Virus record (IMG/VR): IMGVR_UViG_3300012347_000286
Span: 3,266 to 67,265 of that record
Strand: one strand, 5' to 3'
DNA: 64,000 bases
From: a virus
Part shown: positions 4,094-64,000 of the stretch, one piece after another
How positions within the stretch are numbered: position 1 is the stretch's first letter
Layout of the letters: every line of letters begins with the position of its first letter
Translations under genes and position numbers: made by a program
The notes under the pieces: model-generated
Database searches by the model: none
Told to the model about the DNA's origin: nothing
The model's input: only the letters and a program-made list of their open reading frames with translations

Positions 4094-4305
4094 TGAATGA
4101 AAAAATAAAAGAACTTGCGGTACTAGCAAAGATACAAATGGTTAGCGAACCACGCCTTGAAGACTTTGCTGACAGATTGATTAAAGAATGTATCAGTGCA
4201 ATCGAAGAAGTAAAGAAGTCTCCGGCGACTACTTACGAGCGTGATATGACAGACTCCGAGGCTATTGATAAATGCATCCAGGCAATCAAGGATACGTTTC
4301 AATGA
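4090..4305 (+). CDS. hypothetical protein (71 aa)
   Basis: Track ORF, ATGA overlap. Confidence 0.5.
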   Translation: MMNEKIKELAVLAKIQMVSEPRLEDFADRLIKECISAIEEVKKSPATTYERDMTDSEAIDKCIQAIKDTFQ

Positions 4306-5651
4306 AGCTATATAGCAAGCGTATTGCATTTTTAATTAGCGACCAGCACTTTATACCTCACGGTGGCATTGGCTCATTCTGTAAAAGTTTTACAGAGATG
4401 TGCGGTCGACTGAATTGGAAAGTAGATATCATTTTAGACAAAGTACCTACTGGTACTTTTGATGATGTTATTAAAGGTGCAGGCGCTAACATTGTAGTAC
4501 CGGATCTACCATTGCGATATAGTGACCATACTGCGACATTCGCATTTAGCGACACTATTAACTTTGAAAAGATTATCAACTTCCGTAAAGCACTATTGAA
4601 AGCATTTGAGACAAACGTATATGATATGATTGTTTGCAATACGCAGGAAGCAATGACTGCAAGTTATGCAATGACAGTGAACAAGTACATACCTGTTGTA
4701 TTCTACACTCACTTGCATAGTATGATTTTCCGTGATACCCAAGGCAGTGATGTGTTCTTGGATTCTTATCATAACTTCTACAACAAACACATGGAGTTCT
4801 CTGACATTATAATCGGTACGCAAAGTCAGAAGAATATCGATGAACTAACTAAGTACGGCGCAAGTAACTGCGTACTACTGCGTATGCCAATGAGTGAGCG
4901 CGGTCTACTGGAACAAAACACTATTAATGAGCGAAGTGGCGTGTTGTTCATCGGTCGTTGGGAAGAAGGTAAGAACCCTGAATCATATATTAGAGCGATG
5001 AAGGAAGCAAAACTCCCATGCAAAGTTATGACAAACAATAACGGTGCTAAGAAGTTTGAGAAAGCATTTACTGACGCGGGTATCACGGATTATGAAATCA
5101 AAGCAGGCATCACAGGGCAAGAGAAAGTAGACTTCATTAAAAGTTCTAAAGTCTTCTTCATGCCTAGCTTGCGAGAGAACTACCCCTTTGCATTCTTAGA
5201 ATGTCTAGGTCATATGCCATGCGTAGTATTAGATAAGCAAGACTGGTCTGATAACTTTGATTCATCATTGTATCATAAATGCAAGCAAGATGACGTTCCC
5301 GCAATGCTCAACGAATTGTACACATCAGATTCGCGTGGTGCATTAGAGTATGTCAAGTCATTAGATGACGATGTGGCTACTGGTTGGATTAAGTTCTTAG
5401 ATGAATTTGTGGGTAAGCGTAGTAATACAAATGCTGCAAAGATTAACAACTATGAGACAATCAAATACCGTGACTATATCACTGAGTTGGAACGTACTCA
5501 TTTAGCACGTGAAGATTTTGAATCAGTACTGGCAAACAAGTACAAGTTCATTAATGTTTGGTATACTGACTCAGACACATACTTGAGCAAAGATCCAACA
5601 TATAAACCAGTGGAGGAAGTAACAGCTACAGGTCTGTTCAGTTTCGAATGA
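4302..5651 (+). CDS. glycosyltransferase, GT4 (group 1) family
   Basis: C-terminal FIGRWEEGKN ... FMPSLRENYPFAFLECLGHMPCVV matches the GT4 E-x7-E signature. AAGGA RBS sits before the ATG at 4302. Confidence 0.7.
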   Translation: MKLYSKRIAFLISDQHFIPHGGIGSFCKSFTEMCGRLNWKVDIILDKVPTGTFDDVIKGAGANIVVPDLPLRYSDHTATFAFSDTINFEKIINFRKALLKAFETNVYDMIVCNTQEAMTASYAMTVNKYIPVVFYTHLHSMIFRDTQGSDVFLDSYHNFYNKHMEFSDIIIGTQSQKNIDELTKYGASNCVLLRMPMSERGLLEQNTINERSGVLFIGRWEEGKNPESYIRAMKEAKLPCKVMTNNNGAKKFEKAFTDAGITDYEIKAGITGQEKVDFIKSSKVFFMPSLRENYPFAFLECLGHMPCVVLDKQDWSDNFDSSLYHKCKQDDVPAMLNELYTSDSRGALEYVKSLDDDVATGWIKFLDEFVGKRSNTNAAKINNYETIKYRDYITELERTHLAREDFESVLANKYKFINVWYTDSDTYLSKDPTYKPVEEVTATGLFSFE

Positions 5652-6481
5652 AAAAGATTTTAATTACAGGTAACTCAGGTTACATTGGGAGTCACTTAAC
5701 CAAGTTGTTAGGTAATGATTATGAAGTGTATGGGTTGGACTTGAAGAATCCTCAAGTTCCAGTCACTAAGCAATTCAAGCACGATATTAGACAAAACATT
5801 CCTGCTTCAAGTATTGAGTTTGATGCAGTTGTACATCTGGCTGCATTGGTTAATGTAGGTGAGAGTGAGAAACTTCCCACTGATTACTATATGACAAACT
5901 TCTGCGGTACATTGAATGTTATGAACACGGTGAAGTTTAAAAACTTTATCTTTGCTAGTACCGGTGCTGCTGAAAAGTGTGAAAGTGCTTATGGAACAAG
6001 TAAGAAAGCCGCAGAGGATTGTGTACGTGAGTGGTGCAATTATAAGAACGTCCCGTACACTACTTTTAGATTCTACAACGTAATTGGATCAGATGGATTC
6101 AAACCAACGAACCCAGATGGATTGATGTACAATTTAATTAGAGCACTAGATACTAAAGAGTTTACTATTTTTGGGGATGACTACAATACAGTAGATGGTA
6201 CTTGTGTTAGAGACTACGTACATGTAATGGAAATATGTAACGCATTGAAACTAGCAATTGATAAGCCTGCGAACAGTTTGCAGAATTTGGGTCACGGAAT
6301 CGGACACACAGTAAAAGAAATGGTTGAAATCTTTGGTATGACTAATGATGTAACTATTAATGTTACATGTGGTCCAAGACGTAAGGGTGACATTGAAAAG
6401 TCAGTCCTCTCGGACGTTAGCCCATACATGAAGAAACTCTATGAGATTGACGAACTGCTTAAGGTTGACAATATATCGTGA
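5648..6481 (+). CDS. NAD-dependent epimerase/dehydratase (SDR family, UDP-sugar epimerase-like)
   Basis: N-terminal ILITGNSGYIGSHL is a Rossmann GxxGxxG motif, and a YxxxK-type region (YGTSKKAAE) is present. Confidence 0.8.
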   Translation: MKKILITGNSGYIGSHLTKLLGNDYEVYGLDLKNPQVPVTKQFKHDIRQNIPASSIEFDAVVHLAALVNVGESEKLPTDYYMTNFCGTLNVMNTVKFKNFIFASTGAAEKCESAYGTSKKAAEDCVREWCNYKNVPYTTFRFYNVIGSDGFKPTNPDGLMYNLIRALDTKEFTIFGDDYNTVDGTCVRDYVHVMEICNALKLAIDKPANSLQNLGHGIGHTVKEMVEIFGMTNDVTINVTCGPRRKGDIEKSVLSDVSPYMKKLYEIDELLKVDNIS

Positions 6482-26056: not shown

Positions 26057-27937
26057 ATGAGCAAAGTCATCGGTATCGACCTCGGTACCACAAATTCATG
26101 CGTAGCCGTTATTGAAAACGGAATCCCCAAAGTTATTGAGAATTCAGAAGGTGCTAGAACAACACCATCTATCGTTGCTTACACAAGTGATGAAATTCTA
26201 GTAGGCGCAAGCGCAAAGCGTCAGGCAGTAACAAACCCAAAGAACACAGTATACGCAAGCAAGCGTTTAATCGGTCGCAAGTTCGCCGAAGAAGCTGTCC
26301 AAAAAGATATTAATTTGATGCCATACAAAATCGTTGCTAATGACAACGGTGATGCATGGGTTCAAGTTAACGAAGATAAGTTAGCACCTCCGCAAATCTC
26401 AGCAGAAGTATTGCGCAAGATGAAGAAGACTGCGGAAGACTATCTAGGTGAAGAAGTCACCCAAGCAGTTATCACAGTTCCAGCATACTTTAACGATAGT
26501 CAACGTCAAGCAACGAAAGATGCTGGTCGTATTGCTGGTCTAGAAGTATTGCGTATTATCAACGAACCAACAGCAGCCGCACTAGCATACGGTGTTGACA
26601 AGCAAGACAAGAAAGACCGTAAAGTCGCAGTCTATGACTTAGGTGGAGGTACGTTTGACGTATCTATCATTGAGTTGGCAGACGTTGATGGTGATAAGCA
26701 GATTGAAGTTCTATCAACAAACGGCGACACTTTCTTGGGCGGTGAAGATTTCGACCAACGCATCATGGATTACTTGGTTGAAGAGTTTAAGAAAGAGTCC
26801 GGCGTTGACTTGACTAAAGACGTTCTTGCATTGCAACGTTTGAAAGAAGCCGCAGAGAAGGCTAAGATTGAATTGTCAAGTTCACAAAGCACAAGTGTTA
26901 ACTTGCCATACGTTACAGCAGACGCATCAGGTCCTAAACACTTGAACGTTACAATCAATCGTGCTAAGTTGGAACAACTAGTTGATGAATTGATTCAACG
27001 TAGTCTTGCCCCATGTAAGCAAGCGATGAAGGATGCAGGCGTTACTGCAAGTGACATTGACGAAGTTATCTTAGTCGGTGGTATGACACGTATGCCAAAG
27101 GTGCAAGAAGTTGTTGAACAATTGTTTGGCAAAGCACCTCGCAAAGATGTTAACCCAGACGAAGCAGTTGCCGCTGGTGCAGCTATTCAAGGTTCTGTTC
27201 TAGCAGGTGACCGTACTGACGTTCTATTGCTTGACGTTACTCCACTATCATTGGGTATCGAAACGATGGGCAATGTGTTCTCAAAAGTTATCAACAAGAA
27301 TACAACTATCCCTACTAAGGCTTCACAGACTTTCAGTACAGCACAGGACAATCAACCTGCTGTTACAATCAAAGTAGGACAGGGTGAGCGTGAACTATTC
27401 CAATATAATAAAGTACTTGGTGAGTTCAACTTAGATGGTATTGCACCAGCACCCCGCGGTATGCCTCAAATCGAAGTTACGTTTGATATTGACGCAAACG
27501 GTATCATGCACATCAGTGCTAAAGACAAGGGTACAGGTAAAGAGAACAAAATCACTATCAAGTCTAACTCAGGTTTGACAGAAGCAGAGATTCAGCAAAT
27601 GGTTAAAGATGCTGAGGACAATGCAGAAGCAGATAAGAAACACGTTGAATTGGTACAAGCACGTAACGGTGCTGAAGGTACGTACAACACGTTTAAGAAA
27701 GACTTTGATTCATACAAGGATCAAGTAACAGAAGAAGAACGTACCAAAGCAGAAGAAGCATTGAACGCTATTCAAGAGGCACTTAAAGGTGAAGATGTAG
27801 AAGCAATTCAAAAAGCTACTACTGATTTGTATCAATCGATTGGTCCAATCACCGCTAAGAAGCACGAAGCAGAAGAGGCTGCAAAGCCAAAAGCTGATGA
27901 CAACATCACTGATGCAGAAGTTAAGGAGGCGGTATGA
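26057..27937 (+). CDS. dnaK: DnaK (Hsp70) chaperone
   Basis: [22 protein letters not shown] and [11 protein letters not shown] are Hsp70 signatures; full-length. Confidence 0.95.
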
Positions 27938-55397: not shown

Positions 55398-55573
55398 TAC
55401 TTCTCTCCGAAGATATAAGCGCCCATTTTCTTTTCAGTCGCTTCTTTGTCTTTCATACCGCAATCAAAGCAAATTTCTTCACCATTGGGACCGTATGGTC
55501 TAGTTTCGTCAATCATCCCGCACATTTGACATGCTTGGGGAGATTCTTCTTGGATGATGCCGCGACCACTCAT
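55397..55573 (-). CDS. small zinc-ribbon protein (58 aa), not in the ORF track
   Basis: CQMCG ... CFDCG (2x CxxC); TAATG coupling downstream. Confidence 0.45.
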   Translation of the reverse strand: MSGRGIIQEESPQACQMCGMIDETRPYGPNGEEICFDCGMKDKEATEKKMGAYIFGEK

Positions 55574-55749
55574 TGCATTGAATCTTTCATCATTTTGTAG
55601 TTCAGATATGCAAGACCAAAGTCAATCACTGCACTGATGCCATCGCCTCGTTCAATGCTAACTAAACCATGGGCGCAACACCAACCAATAATAAACCATG
55701 TGATTTGAAAGTAGTTTTCACGCCACCATGCTAAAAATTTATCAATCAT
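55570..55749 (-). CDS. small TM protein (59 aa), not in the ORF track
   Basis: AAGGA RBS; hydrophobic WFIIGWCCAHGLV. Confidence 0.4.
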   Translation of the reverse strand: MIDKFLAWWRENYFQITWFIIGWCCAHGLVSIERGDGISAVIDFGLAYLNYKMMKDSMQ

Positions 55750-55853
55750 TTTTCATCCTTATTTGTATACTTGCCTGCTTTGTATCCAGTGTAGATAGCC
55801 ATTGCTATCACACTGAATATACCGAGAACTAGTAGAATCTCAATTACTATCAT
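55746..55853 (-). CDS. possible TM peptide (35 aa)
   Basis: ATGA coupling; a single hydrophobic helix. Confidence 0.3.
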   Translation of the reverse strand: MIVIEILLVLGIFSVIAMAIYTGYKAGKYTNKDEK

Positions 55854-55989
55854 TTAGTTTACTCACATCGAAACGCTTACGAAGTTTTGTTGCAAAATAA
55901 CCTTTAAGGATGACTTCATCAAACATGAAGAACAGCCCAATCAACAATGTAATCGTAATTGTAATCATAAAAAAGTCAGCAAAAAACAT
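55840..55989 (-). CDS. possible small TM protein (49 aa)
   Basis: GGGA RBS immediately after the upstream stop; hydrophobic. Confidence 0.35.
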   Translation of the reverse strand: MFFADFFMITITITLLIGLFFMFDEVILKGYFATKLRKRFDVSKLNDSN

Positions 55990-55991
55990 AA

Positions 55992-57122
55992 TTAATCCCA
56001 GCTTGATGAAGAACTTGAATCACTAGAGCTAGATGAACTAGAGCTATCCGACCAGCTTGACGAGCTAGAAGATGAACTAGAGCTATCCGACCAGCTTGAG
56101 CTTGAGGACTTGCTTGGTGTGTCATCCCAGCTTGAGCTACGCGATGGGGTGCTTGGTGCGTCATCCCATGAGCTGGAGCGTGAACTAGAACTTGCGGGCA
56201 CTTCACGTTCAACAATACGTTCACGTTCCACAACTCGGGTAGTATCGTGATGCGAACCACTCAACATGTTACCAATCAACACACCAGTCAACATATCAGT
56301 GCCACTTGAGCTAGTATGCACAACAGTCGGGGCAGGCTGACTGAAAGTGTTTGCTGATGTACGATACATTCGTGCGCTTGCTTCTGCGGCATCTGCACGA
56401 GCTTGAGCAGCCAGTCGTTCACGGCGTTCTTCTGCTTCAAGGAAGAGTCGTTGCTTTTCTGCGGCTTCTTCTTTCACACGCTTAACTGTTTTCAACTTGT
56501 CAGGATTCTCTGGGTCGAAACGTTCGTGACCATAATTCTTATGTGACTTCAATGCAGCCTCTGCCGCCAATTCAGCCTTACGTTCTGCATCTTGCTTGGC
56601 AAGCATATCCATGTGTTGACGCTTACGTTCAGCTTCACGGTCTGCACGAGCTTTTTCCTCGATTGCTTTGAGTTCGGCTTCGTATTTTTCGTCAGCTTCT
56701 TTATTCTTACGATACACGGTATAGATAATGCCACCAACTGCAAACACAAACAGTACCAAGATAATGTTGCGTACAGTATGACTTTCCTCAATGGATTCAA
56801 TCTTTGCTACTTGCGGGGTAATTGCTTGTTTCAGTTTTTGCACTGAACCTTCAGGAGCAAAGTCAAGTGTTGGGTTAAGACCTGTTGCGATTGTCAGGGC
56901 TTTGTTTGCTTTTTCTAGATTGCCTAGACCTGCTTGTGCTTGCGCCATTGCGTAGAATGCTTTGGAACTCTTTGGATGATTCTGAATAATCACCTCAAGA
57001 CCTGATGCGGCTGCGGCATAGTTCTTTTGTTGAATGAGACCTTCGATTTGTTCAAACGTTGCTTCGGCTTGTGCGGCGATTGCCATCAAACCAAACATTA
57101 CTGCGACTAGAAACTTTTTCAT
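55992..57122 (-). CDS. secreted protein: signal peptide, TPR-like N-domain, charged coiled coil, Ser-rich repetitive C-terminal tail
   Basis: MKKFLVAVMFGLMAIAAQA signal; an EAERKRQ-type coiled coil; (S)nWDD(A/T)PS repeats. Confidence 0.65.
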   Translation of the reverse strand: MKKFLVAVMFGLMAIAAQAEATFEQIEGLIQQKNYAAAASGLEVIIQNHPKSSKAFYAMAQAQAGLGNLEKANKALTIATGLNPTLDFAPEGSVQKLKQAITPQVAKIESIEESHTVRNIILVLFVFAVGGIIYTVYRKNKEADEKYEAELKAIEEKARADREAERKRQHMDMLAKQDAERKAELAAEAALKSHKNYGHERFDPENPDKLKTVKRVKEEAAEKQRLFLEAEERRERLAAQARADAAEASARMYRTSANTFSQPAPTVVHTSSSGTDMLTGVLIGNMLSGSHHDTTRVVERERIVEREVPASSSSRSSSWDDAPSTPSRSSSWDDTPSKSSSSSWSDSSSSSSSSSSWSDSSSSSSSSDSSSSSSWD

Positions 57123-57148
57123 AGTTACCTCTGTGTTAATATGTGTCT

Positions 57149-57177
57149 ATTATATAGGAAAAGCGGTTTATTGTCAA
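57149..57177 (-). promoter_or_regulatory. sigma70 promoter (minus)
   Basis: Reverse complement reads GGTTGACAATAAACCGCTTTTCCTATATAAT. Confidence 0.7.
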
Positions 57178-57203
57178 CCGCTTTTCTTTGTGCTACTTGA
57201 GTA

Positions 57204-58094
57204 TTACTTTCCCAGATTGAGCATCATGTCCTTGCCACCGTTGACCACTGTGTTGGGCATCTTACCATCCCACTTGTCAATCCATTGCAACTGTACATAT
57301 TGTGCGCCACCGTTACTTTGAATAGCTTGTGCTTGAATTTGAATAGCTTTAGCTTCACCTTCAGCTTGTGCGATACGTGACTTAGCTTCAACCTCAATAC
57401 GTTGCAAGTCTTGTTCGGCTTTCAACTTACTTTGTGTAGCAACCATCTTTGCGTCAATCGCATCTTGGTATGCTTTACCAAATCCAAAGTTGACCAAGCT
57501 GATGTTACTCACTGTGATATCGAAGGGTGCGACTTTTGTTTGTAGACGTTCCAGAATCTTACCAGACACTTCTTCACGTTTGATAATCAATTCTTCACTT
57601 GTATACTGACCAGTCACGGTCTTGAACACTTCACTGATAGCTGGTGCAAGTACTTTGTCTGCTACGTTCAATCCAAACTCTTTGTAGATAGTTGGGACCA
57701 TGTTAGGAGTCAAGCGATAGTTTACAACAATGTCAGTGTGTACTTGTTGCATATCTTTAGTACCTGCGCTTTGATTTTCAAGCTGGGCACGTTGTAACTG
57801 TACGTTTACATTCTTAACTGAACTGATTGGGTTGACAAACGTAACACCTTCAGTCAATACGTTATCTAAGTTAGTTTTACCTAGAGTAACTTGCACACCA
57901 ACGTTACCTGGGGGAACGATTGTGATTGATTCAAAAGCAATTACTGCGATAACTAGCAAGAAGGGCAATGATGCAAAGCTACGAAATGGGTACGTAGTTT
58001 CGTATCCGGTGTTCGTGCGTTTGTCAACTGACATGAAATAAAACGCGCCTGCAATTACGATTGCTACGATGAATGAGAGACCAATTAAAAACAT
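57204..58094 (-). CDS. SPFH/band-7 (prohibitin/HflK/C-like) membrane protein
   Basis: N-terminal TM helix, SPFH core, and C-terminal AEGEAKAIQIQAQA coiled coil. Confidence 0.8.
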   Translation of the reverse strand: MFLIGLSFIVAIVIAGAFYFMSVDKRTNTGYETTYPFRSFASLPFLLVIAVIAFESITIVPPGNVGVQVTLGKTNLDNVLTEGVTFVNPISSVKNVNVQLQRAQLENQSAGTKDMQQVHTDIVVNYRLTPNMVPTIYKEFGLNVADKVLAPAISEVFKTVTGQYTSEELIIKREEVSGKILERLQTKVAPFDITVSNISLVNFGFGKAYQDAIDAKMVATQSKLKAEQDLQRIEVEAKSRIAQAEGEAKAIQIQAQAIQSNGGAQYVQLQWIDKWDGKMPNTVVNGGKDMMLNLGK

Positions 58095-58178
58095 TTTGTT
58101 TCCTTAAAAAATTATCGGAGAGGGCTTATTGACATTGCCTCTACGCACACTGCGGGGGTTAACTTTTATCAGCGTTGA

Positions 58179-59234
58179 TTAAAACGCATCGTAGTAGCGG
58201 TAAGACTGTTTCTTGATTCGAGTCAAGGTCAAAGTAGTACCGTTATCTTCGAACACAAACTCACCTTTGTTTGCATCGACTTTAATCAATGCGTTAGGGT
58301 TGAACACTTTGTATTCCCAATCACCTTCTTTGTTGTCTGGTTCAGGATCAAAATCTACAGAGACACCCTTTGGTTGCAATGGGTTACCCTCGAACTTGTG
58401 ACGATACTCAATTTTCTTACCCTTGTGTACAATATCAATTTCGTACTCAGTACCTGAATCGAACTCTGGCTTAGCGTTCAACATTGCCAACGCATCTTGT
58501 GGTGATTCGTTGTAACGATTCATTTCTTCAACCAATGCTTTCAGCATGTCAAAGTTGAATTCAGCGAACAGTGAACCCACGTTAACGATAGAGTTAATAT
58601 GTTCTTTGTTGTTCAACTTGTCACCGCAGTATTCACGGATGAAGTTTGCGTCCAAACCCTTGAAGTCCATCATGTAGAAGATACGACCAGGACGATTACG
58701 CATGTGTGAATCAACACGCCACTTGTCATTACATGTCAACAAGAACAATTTCTTAGTTGGGAACACACCATCAAGCAATGTCAAGACTTTCTCTTGGTCA
58801 TCACGGTCATAAGTCTTTTCAAACTCGTCAAACAAGATAGCGCAAGGCTGGTCGATTGATTGAATGAAATTGTTGAACTTGTCACCGCACCAAGGGGCGT
58901 TAATGACGATTGTTGGGATATCCATTTCAGCCAACTTCATGCAAACGTTCTTAGTAAGCAATGTCTTACCAGAACCTTTTTCACCAGTCAACATGACACC
59001 TGTAGTCGCAGGGCGATCCAAGAATGTGTTAACGATTCGGTCAGTGTTCTTTAGTGAATCACCGTATACTTTACCGATTGGTTGGAATGACTCAATCTTT
59101 TCCAAGAACAACTCGCCGGTCATTTCATTCTTCTGAATGATGTAATTACCTGCGGGCAATTTCTCAGTAAGATCCAACGCCTCTTTCTTAGTGACGCGGT
59201 ATGTATTGCCTGATTTCAAAAAGTATGCTGACAT
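58179..59234 (-). CDS. AAA+ ATPase
   Basis: Walker A GEKGSGKT, Walker B ILFDEFE, sensor-1 TCND and Arg-finger-like RPGRI. Confidence 0.7.
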   Translation of the reverse strand: MSAYFLKSGNTYRVTKKEALDLTEKLPAGNYIIQKNEMTGELFLEKIESFQPIGKVYGDSLKNTDRIVNTFLDRPATTGVMLTGEKGSGKTLLTKNVCMKLAEMDIPTIVINAPWCGDKFNNFIQSIDQPCAILFDEFEKTYDRDDQEKVLTLLDGVFPTKKLFLLTCNDKWRVDSHMRNRPGRIFYMMDFKGLDANFIREYCGDKLNNKEHINSIVNVGSLFAEFNFDMLKALVEEMNRYNESPQDALAMLNAKPEFDSGTEYEIDIVHKGKKIEYRHKFEGNPLQPKGVSVDFDPEPDNKEGDWEYKVFNPNALIKVDANKGEFVFEDNGTTLTLTRIKKQSYRYYDAF

Positions 59235-59284
59235 AAGTTTCTCTGTGTGTTTAAATTAGAAGTGTAGTATACTACCGTTTTGAG

Positions 59285-59315
59285 TTATTGTATAGAGAAA
59301 AGGGCAAATGCCCCT
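59285..59315 (-). terminator. putative rho-independent terminator downstream of nadV (AAAGGG..CCCTTT hairpin with T-rich flanks)
   Basis: Hairpin at about 59290-59310. Confidence 0.45.
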
Positions 59316-59319
59316 TTCT

Positions 59320-60720
59320 TTATTTGCGAGAGTTTGCTCGGACTTCGTCAAAAGTGTAAGACTTTGTAAGACTACCATCTTCGTAGACAGTAACCAATGC
59401 GTCAGTCCAACCACCAATGCCTTTGTCTGACCAACCTGTTGGGGCTGATACACCAGATGCATATTCGCCACCACTGTTAGTGAACAAACGAACACGACCA
59501 CCTTTACTACGTTTGCCTGAGTCAGTGATAGGATCCTTGACTACATCGATCCATTTACCATCGACCTGGACACTTGAGCATTTCATTGCGAAACGTTGGG
59601 TGTCGCGGTCCACGATTTGCAACAACGCTCCACCCATGCCAAAAGCAATATTATCAGCACTGTACCCAAGAGCCATAAAAGCACCGAGAATCCCGCGAAT
59701 AGTAAGTTCATTTACACCATCTCCTTGAATGAGGCGAACGTTGTTCAACACTTTAAAGCCTTTAGAGTTTTTCACACTACCGAACTTCATGTCCAGAATT
59801 TGTACCAACTCTTTGTTGACTGTGATAGGATCACCTGAGTCAGGACGAATCACAACCACTGCACCACTATCAATAACTTGTTGACGCAATTCTTCACCCC
59901 AGATTTTACTGGCTGCGTTGAAAATGTCGTAGCTATCAGATACAAACGCAACGATAGAGCCGGGCTTACCGTATTGTGTTAACATGTTGCTGTAGGCTTT
60001 TGCTTCGTTTTCACGGCCCCAACTTGTTACAGTGCTGTGCTCCATTGCAGGAATGCTGTAACCGCAAACGTCAGCATCATAATACTCCATAGCGTACAGA
60101 ATACCAGTAATAGTGTCGGTACCCATAAAGTTAATGAGATGTCCCGCACCACCAATCCCAGCGCTTTCAAGAGAGCTAACGCCCCGAGCACCGAAATCGT
60201 GTAACTTAAAATCAATACCACTTGGGTCTCCTGTCTTTTCTAAGTACTCGGCAATCACTTTCTTGATTGTGTAAGATTGTGTTGCCACTGTTGTGCCATA
60301 CCACACTGCACGAAGCAATGATGTTTCAAGCCAAGTTGTCAACCAGAAACAGTTAGGGTCTGTGTTCTCAATTGTTGCAAGTACGTTCGAGACCGGAACA
60401 ACAGAGCCTTCGGGTACCGCTCTAATAACAACTGGGAGATATCCGTTGTGGTTGTCAAGAATGTACTGCCATCCTTCTCGGTTAAAGGGGACACCGTGTG
60501 CTGTGAGGATTTTGTCTGCGGTGTCAATGTCAGCTTGGGTAATTGGGCTGAGTAAGTATTCTTTGATAAAAGCCTGTAATCCGAAGAATACCGTTCTATC
60601 ATAACGGCCCCCTCGTGACTCAATGTACGAGTATACACCTGTAGTTCCTACTGGATATTGTTTGAACATTGATACTTTATAGCTATCTGTGTTCAGGATG
60701 ATGTTTTTAGCGAGTTTCAT
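59320..60720 (-). CDS. nadV: nicotinamide phosphoribosyltransferase (NAMPT / NadV)
   Basis: N-terminal NIILNTDSYKVSMFKQYP and overall length are typical of NadV (as in KVP40-type phages). Confidence 0.9.
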   Translation of the reverse strand: MKLAKNIILNTDSYKVSMFKQYPVGTTGVYSYIESRGGRYDRTVFFGLQAFIKEYLLSPITQADIDTADKILTAHGVPFNREGWQYILDNHNGYLPVVIRAVPEGSVVPVSNVLATIENTDPNCFWLTTWLETSLLRAVWYGTTVATQSYTIKKVIAEYLEKTGDPSGIDFKLHDFGARGVSSLESAGIGGAGHLINFMGTDTITGILYAMEYYDADVCGYSIPAMEHSTVTSWGRENEAKAYSNMLTQYGKPGSIVAFVSDSYDIFNAASKIWGEELRQQVIDSGAVVVIRPDSGDPITVNKELVQILDMKFGSVKNSKGFKVLNNVRLIQGDGVNELTIRGILGAFMALGYSADNIAFGMGGALLQIVDRDTQRFAMKCSSVQVDGKWIDVVKDPITDSGKRSKGGRVRLFTNSGGEYASGVSAPTGWSDKGIGGWTDALVTVYEDGSLTKSYTFDEVRANSRK

Positions 60721-60775
60721 AATAAAGTTCCTTTATTTAAGTTTTGCCTAGAGTCTATCTCTAGGACTTGTTATC

Positions 60776-60804
60776 AGTATAACACAACATTATTATTGTG
60801 TCAA
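60776..60804 (-). promoter_or_regulatory. sigma70 promoter (minus; TTGACA-17-TATACT)
   Basis: Reverse complement reads GGTTGACACAATAATAATGTTGTGTTATACT. Confidence 0.65.
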
Positions 60805-60992
60805 CCTTCTTTGGGTTCCATATCAGTTGGATCGAATACATATCCACCTTTGATTCCAAGAATAGGGTCAACCATAAAGTTTGGAACCCATTTGTCCTTC
60901 TTTCCAATCAGTGAGTAAATTGGGAGTGACTTACCGTCTACTACCATTTCACCTACTTGTTTGGTTTCGTATTTGTATTCCCACCAACCCAT
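60801..60992 (-). CDS. hypothetical protein (63 aa)
   Basis: GGGGG RBS; its stop lies within the downstream -35. Confidence 0.45.
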   Translation of the reverse strand: MGWWEYKYETKQVGEMVVDGKSLPIYSLIGKKDKWVPNFMVDPILGIKGGYVFDPTDMEPKEG

Positions 60993-60993
60993 A

Positions 60994-61455
60994 TCAGCCC
61001 CCAAATTCTACCAAAGTGACTGAGCCACCTTTTGATGCGACACCGTATGCAAATGCCTCAATCATTCCAATGATTGTTTCACTGTCGCCACCTGCAAGTC
61101 CCATACCAATGTAGGGCAAGCCGATTCGTTTGTCACCGTATGCATGAATGAGTTTTTGCAAAATCAATTCAAATGCCACGTACTCAAACACATCGGTACC
61201 TTGACTCATATTGTACTGAGTGTAAGCGTTAATAATCAGAAATGTACCCTGGTCATATTCTGTCCAGTTACCTAACTTCATGTATTCACCGCGCTCAGTC
61301 AGATTGTCAATTTCAGCACACAGAGGATATCGTTCACGAATTTCTCGTGCGATGCCACCGCCCATTGTGTTAAAGCAATTACATCCCTGCACCACAACGT
61401 CAAACTCACCTGCTTCTGCTAAGTCTAGCAGATTACCTTTTGCATGTTTTAGCAT
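60994..61455 (-). CDS. macro-domain protein (ADP-ribose binding/processing)
   Basis: VVQGCNCFNTMGGGIAREI matches the macro-domain NAANxxLxxGGGV diphosphate-binding loop. Confidence 0.75.
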   Translation of the reverse strand: MLKHAKGNLLDLAEAGEFDVVVQGCNCFNTMGGGIAREIRERYPLCAEIDNLTERGEYMKLGNWTEYDQGTFLIINAYTQYNMSQGTDVFEYVAFELILQKLIHAYGDKRIGLPYIGMGLAGGDSETIIGMIEAFAYGVASKGGSVTLVEFGG

Positions 61456-61993
61456 ACCTTTTTCCTTGAGTAAAGAATTCCCAACCGCGCAATATAACGC
61501 TAAAACTAAACAACAGTATCATATCAGTAGCAAAGTCACCAACCATCATGCTTATACCTGAATCAAGACAATCGTGAACCAACACACCATTCAAAACCCC
61601 GAATAACGCGGAAATGAGTGATAGCATCATAATGTGATAATATTTCAAGTTATCGTATGTCGCAGATAATTTAAATATCTTGTTGGTTATTAACAATGCA
61701 ATCATAGGAGCACAAGCAAACACTATGACATTCAAAACCATGATATAGATTGTACCAGTCTTATCCATAAGATAAAGTGTTCCCAAAATCACACCAGTTA
61801 AGCCATACCATCCAAATACTAGTATCATCAATAGTTTGATAAAGGATGGTATAAAGATTAAGGCTGCATGTGGATGACGTTGAACCCATGTATCATTGAA
61901 CAAGAATTCATTAAAATTATACGAAGCTACTAGTATAAGAGCTATACATAAAATTTGTAATAAACGAAGTGGATTTATGCTTGTTTTAAACAT
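61433..61993 (-). CDS. polytopic membrane protein (186 aa, about 6 TM)
   Basis: Hydrophobic segments throughout. Confidence 0.55.
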   Translation of the reverse strand: MFKTSINPLRLLQILCIALILVASYNFNEFLFNDTWVQRHPHAALIFIPSFIKLLMILVFGWYGLTGVILGTLYLMDKTGTIYIMVLNVIVFACAPMIALLITNKIFKLSATYDNLKYYHIMMLSLISALFGVLNGVLVHDCLDSGISMMVGDFATDMILLFSFSVILRGWEFFTQGKRYAKTCKR

Positions 61994-62307
61994 GCCGTGA
62001 GTTTTTCAAAATAATCAATTGTTAATTGAGTAGGTTGCACTATCTTGGATCTACCGTCTTTGGTAGACTGTTCAAGTTTGATAACTCCCTTTGTCTGCAA
62101 TGTAACAAGCCGACGTTGAATAGTTGATTCGCTGAGACCATTAGCCAAATTCGCGGCATCCAGCACAGTAACTTCCTCACTAGAGTGCCACTTAGCAGTT
62201 AGTGACAGCAATAGCCTATCTTCAACTGGATCAAGTTGGGGCCATGCTGGAGTTGCTTCCTTCACTGCCCCCATTAAATTAATAAATTTTGCGTATGATG
62301 ATATCAT
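61975..62307 (-). CDS. putative winged-helix transcriptional regulator
   Basis: AAAGGAG RBS; LANGLSESTIQRRLVTLQTKGVIK resembles a MarR-type recognition helix and wing. Confidence 0.45.
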   Translation of the reverse strand: MISSYAKFINLMGAVKEATPAWPQLDPVEDRLLLSLTAKWHSSEEVTVLDAANLANGLSESTIQRRLVTLQTKGVIKLEQSTKDGRSKIVQPTQLTIDYFEKLTACLKQA

Positions 62308-62323
62308 TATACTACTCCTTTAG

Positions 62324-63343
62324 TTATGCACCCACAGCCCACATGACCATGTCATAGTGGTCTTCGAAACATTCGTCACTGCGTACTTCTGCGATTGGTA
62401 CCCAACGTGCTTTTTCAGCGTCATCACTACCTTTCACCTTAGGCAACTCACCATCAGGCAACTGAATCTTGAAACAGTGTGTGATGATACGACCACGGGG
62501 TGAACGATCCACAGCGTCAAATACACGATTGTCAACGATGCTACCACGCAACACGGGGCCTGGTACTTTAATCATTGTTTCTTCGCGCAGTTCACGAATA
62601 GCCGCATCCAATACTGTCTTGTCGGTGTTTGCGTTGACGTAACCACCGGGCAATGCCCACAAGCCACGACCGGGTTCAGCACGGCGTTTAATCATCAACA
62701 CGTGACCCGAACAGATAACAACACTGTCAGCAGTAGAGAAGATTGGAGGGTACTTCAAGCTGGCATATTGTTTGTTGTGTTCAATCAAGAATTCACGTTC
62801 GCGGATAATCTGTTCATACTCAGGAGTATCCTTGAAAGCATCCAAGTAGACGAATGTACTTTGTGGAACCACAGCTTTAATGAAGTTCATGTTTACATCA
62901 CGTTTGAAATACAAGTCACGGATGTTAACTGCACTGAGTGGTTCAATTTCTTCCACATCAACGTATTCCCATTGGGGGAACATATCCAAGTAGAAACTTG
63001 ATTCGTCTTTTTTGTGACCGATGATGGCAGTTTTAGTGCCGAGGATGCGATAACGACTTACGATACTCTGGATGCGTACTGCCCAGGCTTGGTCATTGTA
63101 CATGGTGTCAATGTTTTCTTCGATGTGAATACTCATTGACAGACCGCCTGTAGCAGCCTTAATCATTCTAGCACGTTCGGCACTAGTGAACGGGTTTTTG
63201 TAAGTGCGGGGTTGAGCAGCCGATCCTGTGATAATCACGAGGTTGTCGGTCAATGCTGTGGCTCGCTTGATAATCTCTAAGTGAGCATTGTGGAAGGGTT
63301 GAAAGCGTCCAATGAGGACTAGTGTACCATATTCTTTTGACAT
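62324..63343 (-). CDS. nadM: bifunctional NMN adenylyltransferase / Nudix hydrolase (NadM-Nudix, NatV-like)
   Basis: GRFQPFHNAH is the (H/T)xGH nucleotidyltransferase motif. The Nudix box is GGYVNANTDKTVLDAAIRELREETMI. Confidence 0.85.
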   Translation of the reverse strand: MSKEYGTLVLIGRFQPFHNAHLEIIKRATALTDNLVIITGSAAQPRTYKNPFTSAERARMIKAATGGLSMSIHIEENIDTMYNDQAWAVRIQSIVSRYRILGTKTAIIGHKKDESSFYLDMFPQWEYVDVEEIEPLSAVNIRDLYFKRDVNMNFIKAVVPQSTFVYLDAFKDTPEYEQIIREREFLIEHNKQYASLKYPPIFSTADSVVICSGHVLMIKRRAEPGRGLWALPGGYVNANTDKTVLDAAIRELREETMIKVPGPVLRGSIVDNRVFDAVDRSPRGRIITHCFKIQLPDGELPKVKGSDDAEKARWVPIAEVRSDECFEDHYDMVMWAVGA

Positions 63344-63405
63344 TGAAAAATCCTTTCAATAAATGTCTGCTCGGCGTCTATCGCTCTGCTTCTTTATTTA
63401 TACTT

Positions 63406-63434
63406 AGTATAACACCGTTTGTATTATTTGTCAA
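63406..63434 (-). promoter_or_regulatory. sigma70 promoter (minus; TTGACA-17-TATACT)
   Basis: Reverse complement reads GGTTGACAAATAATACAAACGGTGTTATACT. Confidence 0.65.
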
Positions 63435-63651
63435 CCTTTTTTGCCCATTTGCTGTCTGGATAGGGGAAAAATTCTGTCTCAATTACAAAGAATTTGTGTC
63501 TACCTTTTGGGTTCTCTTGGTTGTACTCTTTTTGAGCAAAGTCTCGGTAAAAATCAGCATCCTCTTTTCGCTGGAACCCACGACTGTCAACTTTCCATGT
63601 TACTTTTTTAGCACAGTGGCTAAGGGTATTTGTACGCATTACTAGAAACAT
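63424..63651 (-). CDS. hypothetical protein (75 aa)
   Basis: AAGGA RBS before the internal ATG; the track start is GTG. Confidence 0.45.
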   Translation of the reverse strand: MFLVMRTNTLSHCAKKVTWKVDSRGFQRKEDADFYRDFAQKEYNQENPKGRHKFFVIETEFFPYPDSKWAKKVDK

Positions 63652-63659
63652 ATCAGTCC

Positions 63660-63989
63660 TTACCACCCAATATGAATGCCGTAGTTTTGAATTGTAGGTC
63701 CGTTGCCGTTGTCGTCTGCTAGACCTCGTGGCACATAAGATTGCCCGTCTAACTTAATCTCAACACGATATCCCAATTCTTTGAGTTTCCATTCTACAGC
63801 CTTTTGTAAAGGTGTAATTGTGCTCTGTAGGTACTCAAACTGCCGCACACTACCCATATCGATAAACACATGACGCTTGCCGCCTTCGGCAGCTTCTTTC
63901 ACTTTTTTCTCAACGCTGTGTTTCAAGTAGTCAGCAACTTCTTGCCCACTTTGGTCATACAGTTCTTTGGCTTCTTTTGCGGTAATCAT
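63660..63989 (-). CDS. hypothetical protein (109 aa)
   Basis: GGGA RBS; track ORF. Confidence 0.55.
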   Translation of the reverse strand: MITAKEAKELYDQSGQEVADYLKHSVEKKVKEAAEGGKRHVFIDMGSVRQFEYLQSTITPLQKAVEWKLKELGYRVEIKLDGQSYVPRGLADDNGNGPTIQNYGIHIGW

Positions 63990-64000
63990 TTTAATCCCAA

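Follow-up and report, generated by a model that had tools for sequence, protein, structure and literature searches.

A recurrent NAD+ reconstitution cassette with an added Poa1p/Adpp-like macro gene in an uncultivated myovirus lineage

Do the NAD+ salvage genes of an uncultivated virus form one expanded counter-defence island together with all of their neighbours, or does a smaller functional unit lie among them? The question arose from a preliminary description of IMG/VR record IMGVR_UViG_3300012347_000286, of which positions 3,266-67,265 were analysed (a stretch of 64,000 nt, hereafter the window), and it concerns seven genes in the region 57,204-63,343 of that window. All seven exist at the positions originally reported, and in the ORF listing all lie on the minus strand. 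The carrier is a large uncultivated phage of an abundant myovirus lineage, and the genes are located in a variable region near rIIA-rIIB, which we compared with about 140 related metagenomic phage loci (IMG/VR relatives). The island shrank in this comparison: a three-gene cassette of NadM, a macro-domain protein and NadV stood, and the remaining neighbours proved to be unrelated or unproven. The cassette is real and recurrent, because the macro gene co-occurs with the NAD+ reconstitution pathway NARP2 and has no promoter of its own.

The locus and its NARP2 core

The features of the region, in the order of transcription, are as follows.

63406..63434, minus strand: sigma-70-like promoter upstream of NadM, TTGACA-17-TATACT with TG, 11/12 consensus matches
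62324..63343, minus strand: NadM/NatV-type bifunctional NMN adenylyltransferase and ADP-ribose Nudix hydrolase, 339 aa (NARP2 Nmnat)
61975..62307, minus strand: putative MarR-like winged-helix (wHTH) protein, 110 aa, first gene of the wHTH-membrane pair
61433..61993, minus strand: membrane protein, 186 aa, about six transmembrane helices, ECF S-component-like fold
60994..61455, minus strand: macro-domain protein, 153 aa, Poa1p/Adpp/T4 Tk.4 family (PHROG 335), proposed hydrolase of ADPR-1''-phosphate or related ADPR derivatives
60801..60992, minus strand: small ORF, about 63 aa from the ATG at 60992 (TTG at 61004 in the ORF listing)
60776..60804, minus strand: sigma-70-like promoter immediately upstream of NadV, TTGACA-17-TATACT with TG, 11/12 matches
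60747..60765, minus strand: 7-bp hairpin in the NadV 5' leader, between promoter and ribosome-binding site
59320..60720, minus strand: NadV, nicotinamide phosphoribosyltransferase, 466 aa, canonical NAMPT (NARP2 Nampt)
59299..59317, minus strand: weak stem-loop followed by TTTTCTCT, directly past the NadV stop codon, read from the sequence
58179..59234, minus strand: classical-clade AAA+ ATPase, 351 aa, Walker A GEKGSGKT, Walker B ILFDEFE
57204..58094, minus strand: SPFH/Band-7 membrane protein, 296 aa, N-terminal transmembrane helices (Pfam Band_7, 3e-29)

NadM contains the Pfam domains CTP_transf_like and NUDIX and matches PDB entry 2qjo (E 1.7e-80) and NCBIfam PRK05379 (1e-110); its residues R13, Q15, P16, H18, H21 and R142 and the Nudix RELxEE motif are invariant across 62 relatives. 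NadV carries the NAPRTase and NAMPT_N domains of Pfam, matches the NAMPT structure 7yqo (E 4e-174) and human NAMPT (about 1e-130), and has the AMEHST histidine and the HDFGARG and RPDSGD motifs. Since the catalytic motifs of both enzymes are intact, NadV and NadM-Nudix are, as judged from their sequences, the NARP2 pathway, to which the preliminary description had assigned them.

NARP2, the Nampt-Nmnat pair of Vibrio phage KVP40 described by Osterman et al., has been published as a counter-defence pathway (10.1101/2024.02.11.579819), and it experimentally cancels Thoeris, DSR, SIR2-HerA and aRES, the last on its own (10.1101/2024.02.11.579819; 10.64898/2026.01.28.702374). As in KVP40, a canonical NAMPT-type NadV and a bifunctional NMNAT-Nudix enzyme are encoded close together in one phage, and the expected reaction leads from nicotinamide, PRPP and ATP to NAD+. 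Unlike in KVP40, a macro gene lies between the two genes, in this window along with the wHTH-membrane pair and the small ORF, and the pair is at most about 60% identical in protein sequence to that of any isolated phage.

A further difference is that NadM and NadV are apparently driven by two separate early-type promoters. Upstream regions of NadM in related loci scored at least 10/12 in 26 of 45 distinct cases compared to 29 of 500 background windows, and those of NadV did so in 39 of 47. The promoter scan revealed none specific to the macro gene, in contrast to the conserved, near-consensus promoters of NadM and NadV; thus, the macro gene is probably co-transcribed with NadM, and the promoter at 63406..63434 is the probable start of the transcription unit that extends from NadM to the macro gene. 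The hairpin in the NadV leader had no match in Rfam. The stem-loop past NadV, which the automated hairpin scan reported on the plus strand only, is possibly a partial terminator before the AAA+ gene.

The macro protein and its linkage to NARP2

The 153-aa protein had no match in Pfam and matched PHROG 335 with an E-value of 2.6e-37. Its AlphaFold model (pLDDT 83.9) has a macro fold, and Foldseek aligned it with DarG, TARG1 and viral macrodomains at E-values down to 5.6e-8. By sequence, its top PDB match was yeast Poa1p, an ADPR-1''P phosphatase, and the validated Adpp of Vibrio phage Gary was 30% identical (E 5e-16). With the CNC, GGG and G-x-G-L-A-GG motifs of Poa1p/T4 Tk.4-type macro proteins also conserved, sequence comparison identifies it as a Poa1p/Adpp-family homologue. 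N26 corresponds to Adpp N27, and Q23 stands where Adpp has H24, a residue whose H24A substitution is listed among the Adpp mutants (10.64898/2026.01.28.702374) and which is equivalent to Poa1p H23, for which a His-to-Ala crystal entry exists in the PDB. Most of the lineage, including this phage, has Gln at this position, and about 13 relatives have His. Adpp is an ADPR-1''-phosphate phosphatase that extends NARP1 (10.64898/2026.01.28.702374), and the earlier proposal that the macro domain acts on ADP-ribose derivatives agrees with the substrate class predicted from this family.

The suggested link of the macro gene to the NadV/NadM pair was borne out by gene order, although all counted loci come from a single lineage and, through shared descent, do not represent independent events. 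Of 44 non-redundant loci seeded on AAA+, 18 have NARP2 and 26 lack it; the macro gene was found in 13 of the former and in 0 of the latter (Fisher p = 1.7e-7, uncorrected for phylogeny). In the macro-seeded IMG/VR loci the order NadM...macro-NadV occurred in about 56 of 73, and in 29 of these 56 the gap between macro gene and NadV was 61-106 bp; the gap between NadM and the macro gene ranged between 5 and 7,673 bp and held a wide variety of inserts, while the macro-NadV junction stayed intact. Moreover, Vibrio phage vB_VmeM-32 has an independent NadM-macro-terminator arrangement, and in related cassettes another nucleotide-processing gene, Nuc_deoxyri_tr2, has been recruited into the same slot.

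The closest precedent is NARP1-AP, the Adps-Adpp-Namat operon of phage Gary (10.64898/2026.01.28.702374), in which a Poa1p-like macro gene likewise lies directly upstream of a NAMPT-family gene. There the partner pathway is NARP1, and the ORFs of the window that were scanned include no PRPS-like Adps. As NARP2 needs no ADPR substrate, the phosphatase would lack the obligatory role that Adpp has in NARP1-AP. The neighbourhoods of phage NadM/NadV surveyed by Iyer et al. in 2022 (NADAR/Macro/SLOG) similarly place ADPR-derivative-processing domains with predicted soluble substrates beside NAD+ salvage genes, although NADAR rather than Macro is given as the NadM/NadV neighbour in the available part of the survey (PMC9503650).

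Neighbouring genes

The AAA+ ATPase (Pfam AAA, 3.3e-9; PHROG 2376, 8.5e-91) is a frequent neighbour that is separable from NARP2 both ways: 26 of 44 AAA+ loci have no NARP2, 11 of 34 NARP2 loci have no AAA+ gene, and in L081, L083, L107 and L126 the gene directly follows rIIB. The SPFH gene followed AAA+ in just 3 of 66 non-redundant loci and is a sporadic accessory gene. Thus, the membership of both in the module, as originally proposed, was not supported. A TPR/Ser-rich gene also lies near the cassette and was likewise counted as a neighbour.

The wHTH and membrane genes are a rare, self-contained pair in which the wHTH stop overlaps the membrane gene by 19 nt. For the putative wHTH protein, a match to Pfam MarR_2 fell below the cut-off (E 0.0063), and a PDB alignment, likewise not significant, showed a recognition helix and wing resembling those of MarR. 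The membrane protein folds like a vitamin-binding S-component of ECF transporters, and its sequence is a distant relative of MASE1. The pair is conserved in L078, L160-L163 and the P0130 contigs and occurred in none of the roughly 140 IMG/VR relatives. The small ORF, which the preliminary description had missed, begins 1 nt past the macro stop codon, between the macro gene and NadV; its homologues (93-94% identity) occupy different positions in L021, L023 and L097, so that it is a mobile small gene.

Competing explanations and the proposed role of the cassette

It is highly improbable that all seven genes work as a single island, with the membrane protein taking up an NAD+ precursor and the wHTH protein as regulator. 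The genes all run in one direction and are closely packed downstream of early-type promoters, the S-component fold would suit uptake, a phage precursor transporter has a precedent in NARP3 (a PnuC-like transporter with a NadR-like enzyme; PMC13464706), which likewise pairs a small, possibly precursor-capturing membrane protein with NAD+ synthesis enzymes, and L079 (the Logan copy of the window itself), L161 and L162 share the order NadM-wHTH-membrane-macro, with at least wHTH-membrane-macro in L160. However, the distribution of AAA+ and SPFH largely refutes their part of this reading, and L078 as well as more distant relatives carry the wHTH-membrane pair without any NAD gene, which counts against a role in the cassette. 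Sequence searches with the membrane protein gave no transporter family, those with its distant relatives gave the MASE1 sensor domain, and, unlike in NARP3, the membrane gene is paired with a wHTH gene; a PnuC-like identity was rejected. We consider it equally far-fetched that the macro protein removes ADP-ribose from DNA, RNA or protein and so counters DarT-like or other ADP-ribosylating defences. DarG and TARG1 are its closest solved folds and NCBIfam DarG gave a weak match (E 2e-5, far below the cut-off), but its best sequence relatives of known function are the small-molecule phosphatases Poa1p and Adpp, and a lineage-invariant Gln80 stands at the position of the catalytic lysine of the DarG/TARG1 'PTK' motif. 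The reversal of DarT-type ADP-ribosylation that had been envisaged was thus not supported.

A general-purpose T4 Tk.4-like enzyme, with a role separate from NARP2 and co-inherited from one variable region of an ancestral genome, is unlikely but deserves more weight. The macro family is represented in 2,736 phage records, most of them from T4-like phages that lack NARP, and its phage members are mostly encoded away from NAD+ salvage genes; in 11 of the 73 lineage loci the macro gene has neither NadM nor NadV in its vicinity, and in 3 of these it lies directly beside AAA+; the cultured Synechococcus phage B23 and Ralstonia phage RSP15 encode macro and NadV far apart; and every counted locus comes from one lineage. 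Against this stand the association with NARP2, the preserved macro-NadV junction, the pair in vB_VmeM-32 and the functional role of a homologous macro enzyme in NARP1. It seems rather improbable that NadV and NadM are mainly a metabolic booster supplying NAD+ for phage nucleotide and DNA metabolism. Literature cited in PMC9025141 interprets the KVP40 genes as a pyridine-nucleotide scavenging pathway, and PMC9503650 describes NadM/NadV genes as common among large aquatic phages; however, NARP2 cancels defences experimentally, and since the DNA ligase of the window is ATP-dependent, the window offers no obvious NAD+-hungry phage enzyme. The booster and counter-defence roles can coexist.

We lean, with guarded confidence, towards an early-expressed NAD+ reconstitution cassette of NadM-Nudix, macro protein and NadV as the functional unit. 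The Gln at the Adpp H24/Poa1p H23 position and the mostly NARP-free occurrence of the macro family in phages are points against this three-gene reading. In such a cassette NadV would convert nicotinamide and PRPP to NMN, and the adenylyltransferase half of NadM would convert NMN and ATP to NAD+, restoring, as the published pathway suggests, the pool destroyed by defence systems. The most likely role of the macro protein would be to remove a 1''-phosphate or comparable small group from derivatives of ADPR, for example from ADPR-1''P, a product of RES-type NADases, and the Nudix half could then split the resulting ADPR to AMP and ribose-5-phosphate. The wHTH-membrane pair and the small ORF would be separate insertions into the NadM-macro gap, and AAA+, SPFH and the TPR/Ser-rich gene neighbours rather than components. 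NARP2 alone overcomes aRES in the published test; therefore, NAD+ can be resynthesized without the macro step. Together with the Nudix reaction, the macro step may remove a toxic by-product and channel carbon and phosphate back towards PRPP and ATP, the two substrates that NARP2 consumes. We found no published description of NARP2 with an Adpp-like macro; the two-enzyme pathway is already known, and the added macro gene is a variation on it rather than a part of a seven-gene island.

Layout of the locus and its source phage

The minus strand from 63343 to 55992 carries nine co-directional ORFs, the last of which is not part of the finding:

63343..62324, minus strand, NadM-Nudix, 339 aa
62307..61975, minus strand, putative winged-helix (wHTH) protein, 110 aa
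61993..61433, minus strand, membrane protein, 186 aa
61455..60994, minus strand, macro-like protein, 153 aa
60992..60801, minus strand, small ORF, about 63 aa
60720..59320, minus strand, NadV, 466 aa
59234..58179, minus strand, AAA+ ATPase, 351 aa
58094..57204, minus strand, SPFH/Band-7 protein, 296 aa
57122..55992, minus strand, TPR/Ser-rich envelope protein, 376 aa

From NadM through the small ORF, neighbouring genes overlap or are separated by at most 16 nt, and the NadV stop codon is followed by a weak stem-loop and a T-run. Three near-consensus sigma-70-type promoters were located on the minus strand of the locus:

63434..63406, minus strand, promoter 5' of NadM, near-consensus sigma-70-type
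60804..60776, minus strand, promoter 5' of NadV, near-consensus sigma-70-type
57177..57149, minus strand, promoter 5' of the TPR gene, sigma-70 with a perfect 12/12 consensus

A 7-bp hairpin (CCTAGAG...CTCTAGG, 60747-60765, minus strand) lies in the NadV leader, 3' of the conserved promoter and 5' of the ribosome-binding site. An Rfam scan of 55500-64000 matched no family, NAD+ riboswitches included, and the leader hairpin was likewise unmatched. The TPR protein (55992-57122, minus strand) combines a signal peptide, TPR, a transmembrane helix and a TolA-like charged coiled coil, and its C-terminus is a serine-rich tail with repeated 'SSSSWD' motifs.

At the DNA level, nothing close to the window turned up in 50,697 phage records, and Megablast with the 7.8-kb region as the query gave zero matches in INPHARED; the locus therefore has no close cultured relative. 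Other genes of the window encode a DnaK homologue, an ATP-dependent DNA ligase, a 5'-3' exonuclease and sugar-modifying enzymes; in relatives, rIIA/rIIB adjoin the locus and the contigs reach up to 483 kb. Together, these features point to a large uncultivated myovirus-like phage. The DnaK/Hsp70 homologue is full-length (626 aa, 26057-27937, plus strand; PHROG 22485 at E 1e-272), with about 69% identity to DnaK-like genes of some phage records and 52-55% to those of huge uncultured phages (LR756501/502). At 4272-6481 (plus strand), a glycosyltransferase, recognized by a weak Pfam match below the cut-off, adjoins an NAD-dependent epimerase/dehydratase, and this pair may be a phage sugar-modification module.

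An intact NARP2 core and a macro-like protein

NadV matched the Pfam families NAPRTase and NAMPT_N, NCBIfam PRK09198 (E 7e-191) and solved NAMPT structures (PDB 7yqo, E 4e-174; human NAMPT, about 1e-130), and in the PDB alignment the AMEHST histidine and the HDFGARG and RPDSGD motifs were present. As judged by sequence search, it was much nearer to cellular NAMPT than to its weaker PDB matches. No PRPS-like ORF (Adps) was detected among the window ORFs scanned. NadM, encoded 1.6 kb from NadV, resembled bifunctional NMNAT/Nudix structures (Synechocystis 2qjo, 1.7e-80; Francisella 2qjt, 3.5e-60), and its G-R-F-Q-P-x-H-x-x-H motif, R142 and the Nudix R-E-L-x-E-E core were invariant in 62 distinct relatives. 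Judged from these sequence features, NadM and NadV are an intact core of NARP2, an already known pathway. The Nampt-Nmnat pair was named NARP2 by Osterman et al., who reported that it overcomes several NAD+-depleting systems (10.1101/2024.02.11.579819), and it also overcomes aRES (10.64898/2026.01.28.702374). The preliminary description had taken NadV and NadM-Nudix for NARP2 counter-defence, and homology, intact motifs and the published pathway bear this out; it had named missing catalytic residues as refuting, and the catalytic motifs are present in both proteins.

The 153-aa protein encoded between them had no match in Pfam and matched PHROG 335 ("phosphatase") at 2.6e-37. Its best PDB sequence matches were yeast Poa1p, which is an ADP-ribose-1''-phosphate phosphatase, and the Mycobacterium tuberculosis (Mtb) DarG macrodomain. 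The AlphaFold model (pLDDT 83.9, built on 42 sequences) matched DarG, TARG1, BT1257 and viral macrodomains in Foldseek with probability 1.0. These matches include DarG itself, and it had been suggested in the preliminary description that the protein could reverse DarT-type ADP-ribosylation. However, the first lysine of the DarG 'PTKK' loop, the catalytic residue of DarG and TARG1, is replaced in the window protein: the position of the Mtb DarG lysine is aligned with Q80, and this glutamine was invariant across 42 lineage sequences. Given this difference and the closer relationship to Poa1p and Adpp, the DarT-reversal proposal was not upheld.

Adpp of Vibrio phage Gary shares 30% identity with the macro-like protein (BLASTP, E 5e-16). 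Adpp turns ADPR-1''P into ADPR, so that NARP1 overcomes the RES-domain defence aRES, and the mutants made by the authors of that study were H24A and N27A (10.64898/2026.01.28.702374, 2026 preprint). The window protein is likewise a Poa1p homologue and keeps N27 as N26, but differs from Adpp at H24, which corresponds to Q23 in the window protein and about 56 relatives and is His in about 13 relatives. Poa1p was crystallised with the equivalent His mutated to Ala. The partner pathway differs too, since the gene lies with NadM and a canonical NadV (NARP2) and not in an Adps and Namat operon as in NARP1. Because of the similarity to Adpp and Poa1p, the retention of N26 and the Gln80 at the DarG lysine position, the protein is better read as a putative enzyme of the Poa1p/Adpp type, with free ADPR derivatives as substrates, than as a DarG-type DNA de-ADP-ribosylase. 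In view of the H-to-Q change, its assignment to one particular substrate is tentative. Attachment of a Poa1p-like macro phosphatase to NARP1 is already known (10.64898/2026.01.28.702374), and a 2022 study (PMC9503650) had recorded NADAR (ADPR-processing) domains next to phage NadM/NadV. No description of a NARP2-plus-macro cassette was found in the papers searched.

Linkage of the macro gene to NARP2

When IMG/VR was searched with the macro-like protein as the seed, 73 loci were retrieved (39-88% identity), and the order NadM...macro-NadV was found in about 56 of them. The gap between the macro gene and NadV was 61-106 bp in 29/56 loci, and that between NadM and the macro gene ranged from 5 to 7,673 bp and was filled by many different small genes. 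The AAA+-seeded search gave 80 loci, and counts were made on the 44 of these that were non-redundant and had 6 kb or more of upstream sequence. NARP2 was present in 18 of the 44, and 13 of these 18 also carried the macro gene; in the 26 loci lacking NARP2, the macro gene was never nearby (0/26; Fisher p = 1.7e-7, uncorrected for shared ancestry). In four loci (L081, L083, L107, L126) rIIB is directly followed by AAA+, which indicates that NadM-macro-NadV behaves as one insertion/deletion unit. Two lineage backbones were distinguished, with rIIA-rIIB lying either 5' of AAA+ or 3' of it (the same four loci versus L017, L093, L097, L117, L129 and L144), and in both the slot directly 5' of AAA+ holds either the whole block or none of it.

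The NadV promoter (TTGACA-17-TATACT) was conserved in 39/47 distinct upstream regions and the NadM promoter was present in 26/45. A promoter preceded the macro gene in only 6/60 upstream regions, which is the background level, and thus the macro gene and NadM are probably co-transcribed.

Although strong, the link between the macro gene and NARP2 is not obligatory. About 2,700 phage records contain a member of the macro family, and most of these records lack NARP; within the lineage, the macro gene was found without NARP2 in 11/73 loci, and it was missing from 5/18 NARP2 cassettes of the AAA+-seeded set. The NARP2-plus-macro cassette dominates an abundant metagenomic lineage, in which 2,637 macro homologues were counted at E <= 1e-5, the 120 listed all being at least 76% identical. 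Among isolates, tblastn with concatenated proteins detected NARP2-macro adjacency only in Vibrio phage vB_VmeM-32, an isolated T4-like phage (Straboviridae), as NadM-macro. Its order is RNA ligase 1 (RnlA)-NadM-Nudix-macro-terminator (KU160494.1, L159 5171-8100), with the macro gene annotated as hypothetical; here NadM and macro are paired independently, next to a gene for RNA repair. The third annotated gene in the listed isolate adjacencies of macro and NAMPT-family genes was, where shown, PRPS-like and not NadM, so these look like NARP1-AP, the Adps-Adpp-Namat pathway.

In Klebsiella phage phi1_175008 (L076 7402-11920, Stephanstirmvirinae), a macro 'phosphatase' homologue is located about 3 kb from an AAA+ homologue, in a setting with MazG-like pyrophosphatases and an adjoining ribonucleotide reductase; neither NadM nor NadV was annotated within the 18-kb stretch viewed. 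Thirteen relatives of the window locus carry an additional Nuc_deoxyri_tr2 (PF15891) protein, in most cases encoded in the macro-NadV interval. Other extra genes in or beside the relatives' cassettes encode a radical-SAM enzyme, an RNA ligase, an AAA_33 kinase, metallophosphatases and a 133-aa protein without a Pfam match that is SLOG-like by eye (example extra-gene sites: L059 13292-13771, L058 10471-10872, L047 8275-9219, L048 5251-6312).

Neighbouring genes and the role of the cassette

The preliminary description had assembled seven genes into an NAD+ counter-defence island, and this larger island was not supported. The AAA+ protein belongs to the classical clade of AAA ATPases (Pfam AAA, 3.3e-9; Walker A GEKGSGKT, Walker B ILFDEFE; best PDB match, the p97 AAA domain), and its homologues occur widely, in unrelated phages and in diverse gene contexts. 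It lies directly 3' of NadV in 17/34 NARP2 loci and is absent from 11/34, and NARP2 is absent from 26/44 AAA+ loci. SPFH, which has two N-terminal hydrophobic segments and matches Pfam Band_7 at 3e-29, directly follows AAA+ in 3/66 loci. Hence there is no evidence that either protein is part of the NAD+ module. The idea that AAA+ and SPFH form an FtsH/HflKC-like pair linked to NARP2 was rejected on this distribution (3/66 loci); AAA+ also has neither a membrane anchor nor a protease domain.

Among 5.8 billion proteins searched by word index, the membrane protein had only six homologues; tblastn against phages and pattern scans of IMG/VR (single sequence and alignment) and JGI metagenome contigs found nothing. 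Wherever its surroundings could be recovered, its gene overlapped a preceding gene of about 100-114 aa. The arrangement was NadM-wHTH-membrane-macro in L079 (the Logan copy of the window itself), L161 and L162, wHTH-membrane-macro in L160, and rIIB-wHTH-membrane-AAA+ in L078, where a close AAA+ relative (94% identity) follows the pair without NadM, macro or NadV. A full HMMER profile search added 168 further representatives, more distantly related and about 185 aa long. In the two that could be placed (P0129, P0130), the membrane gene again followed a gene of about 110 aa, with a faint MarR_2 match in one of them, and the surroundings held regulators, a methyltransferase and other phage-like genes and no NAD gene. 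The N-terminal half of Pfam MASE1 (PF05231; positions about 3-180 of 299), a membrane sensor domain, was matched by 28/77 profile-detected relatives, a few of which reached the gathering score, and the window protein itself was unmatched. The protein has a six-helix ECF S-component-type fold with zero matches to S-component Pfam families; A18 is invariant, there is no clear TM1 AxxxA motif, and no EcfA/EcfT was detected in the subset of window ORFs scanned. No sequence match to PnuC (NMN_transporter) or any transporter family was obtained, and a PnuC-like NR transporter was rejected, as the fold did not match either. The literature on phage ECF S-components and MASE1 structure yielded nothing useful. 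Our reading is that the wHTH and membrane genes form a portable two-gene unit, a membrane protein capturing or sensing a small ligand and a putative DNA-binding partner, which entered the variable stretch between NadM and the macro gene. The unit may act on an NAD+ precursor, although the wider distribution of the pair does not support this.

In the core pathway, as homology shows, NadV converts nicotinamide and PRPP to NMN, and NadM adenylylates NMN to NAD+. The macro-like protein may dephosphorylate ADPR-1''P or a related derivative, after which the NadM Nudix domain could split ADPR into AMP and ribose-5-phosphate; its assignment as an ADP-ribose pyrophosphatase is based on the names of matching NCBIfam models and on published family naming (PMC9025141). 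Such a route would clear a toxic by-product and return material toward PRPP and ATP, the substrates whose use makes NARP2 costly (10.1101/2024.02.11.579819). The case for a macro step in NARP2 is weakened above all by the published assay, in which NARP2 alone beats aRES. It is improbable, in our estimate, that the macro-like protein is a dedicated third part of a "NARP2-AP" and that, jointly, the S-component-like protein and wHTH add NAD+-precursor capture or sensing in a sub-lineage. If so, macro and Nudix would act in series (ADPR-1''P to ADPR to AMP and ribose-5-P), detoxifying the product of a RES-type NADase and refilling the PRPP and ATP used by NARP2, and the membrane protein would serve capture or sensing with its own wHTH partner in the same operon.

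NAD+ depletion is among the commonest bacterial anti-phage strategies, and the phage pathways reconstituting NAD+ (NARP1, NARP2, NARP3, NARP1-AP) have been described only since 2024. The wHTH and S-component-like/MASE1-like pair represents a rare, portable phage module, and the NadM-macro-NadV locus offers a concrete three-gene construct testable against aRES-type defences. An Adpp-like macro protein fixed inside the NARP2 of an abundant uncultivated large-phage lineage suggests selection for the clean-up of ADPR derivatives even where the pathway needs no ADPR substrate, and points to ADPR-1''P toxicity or PRPP/ATP recycling as a hidden cost of the arms race.
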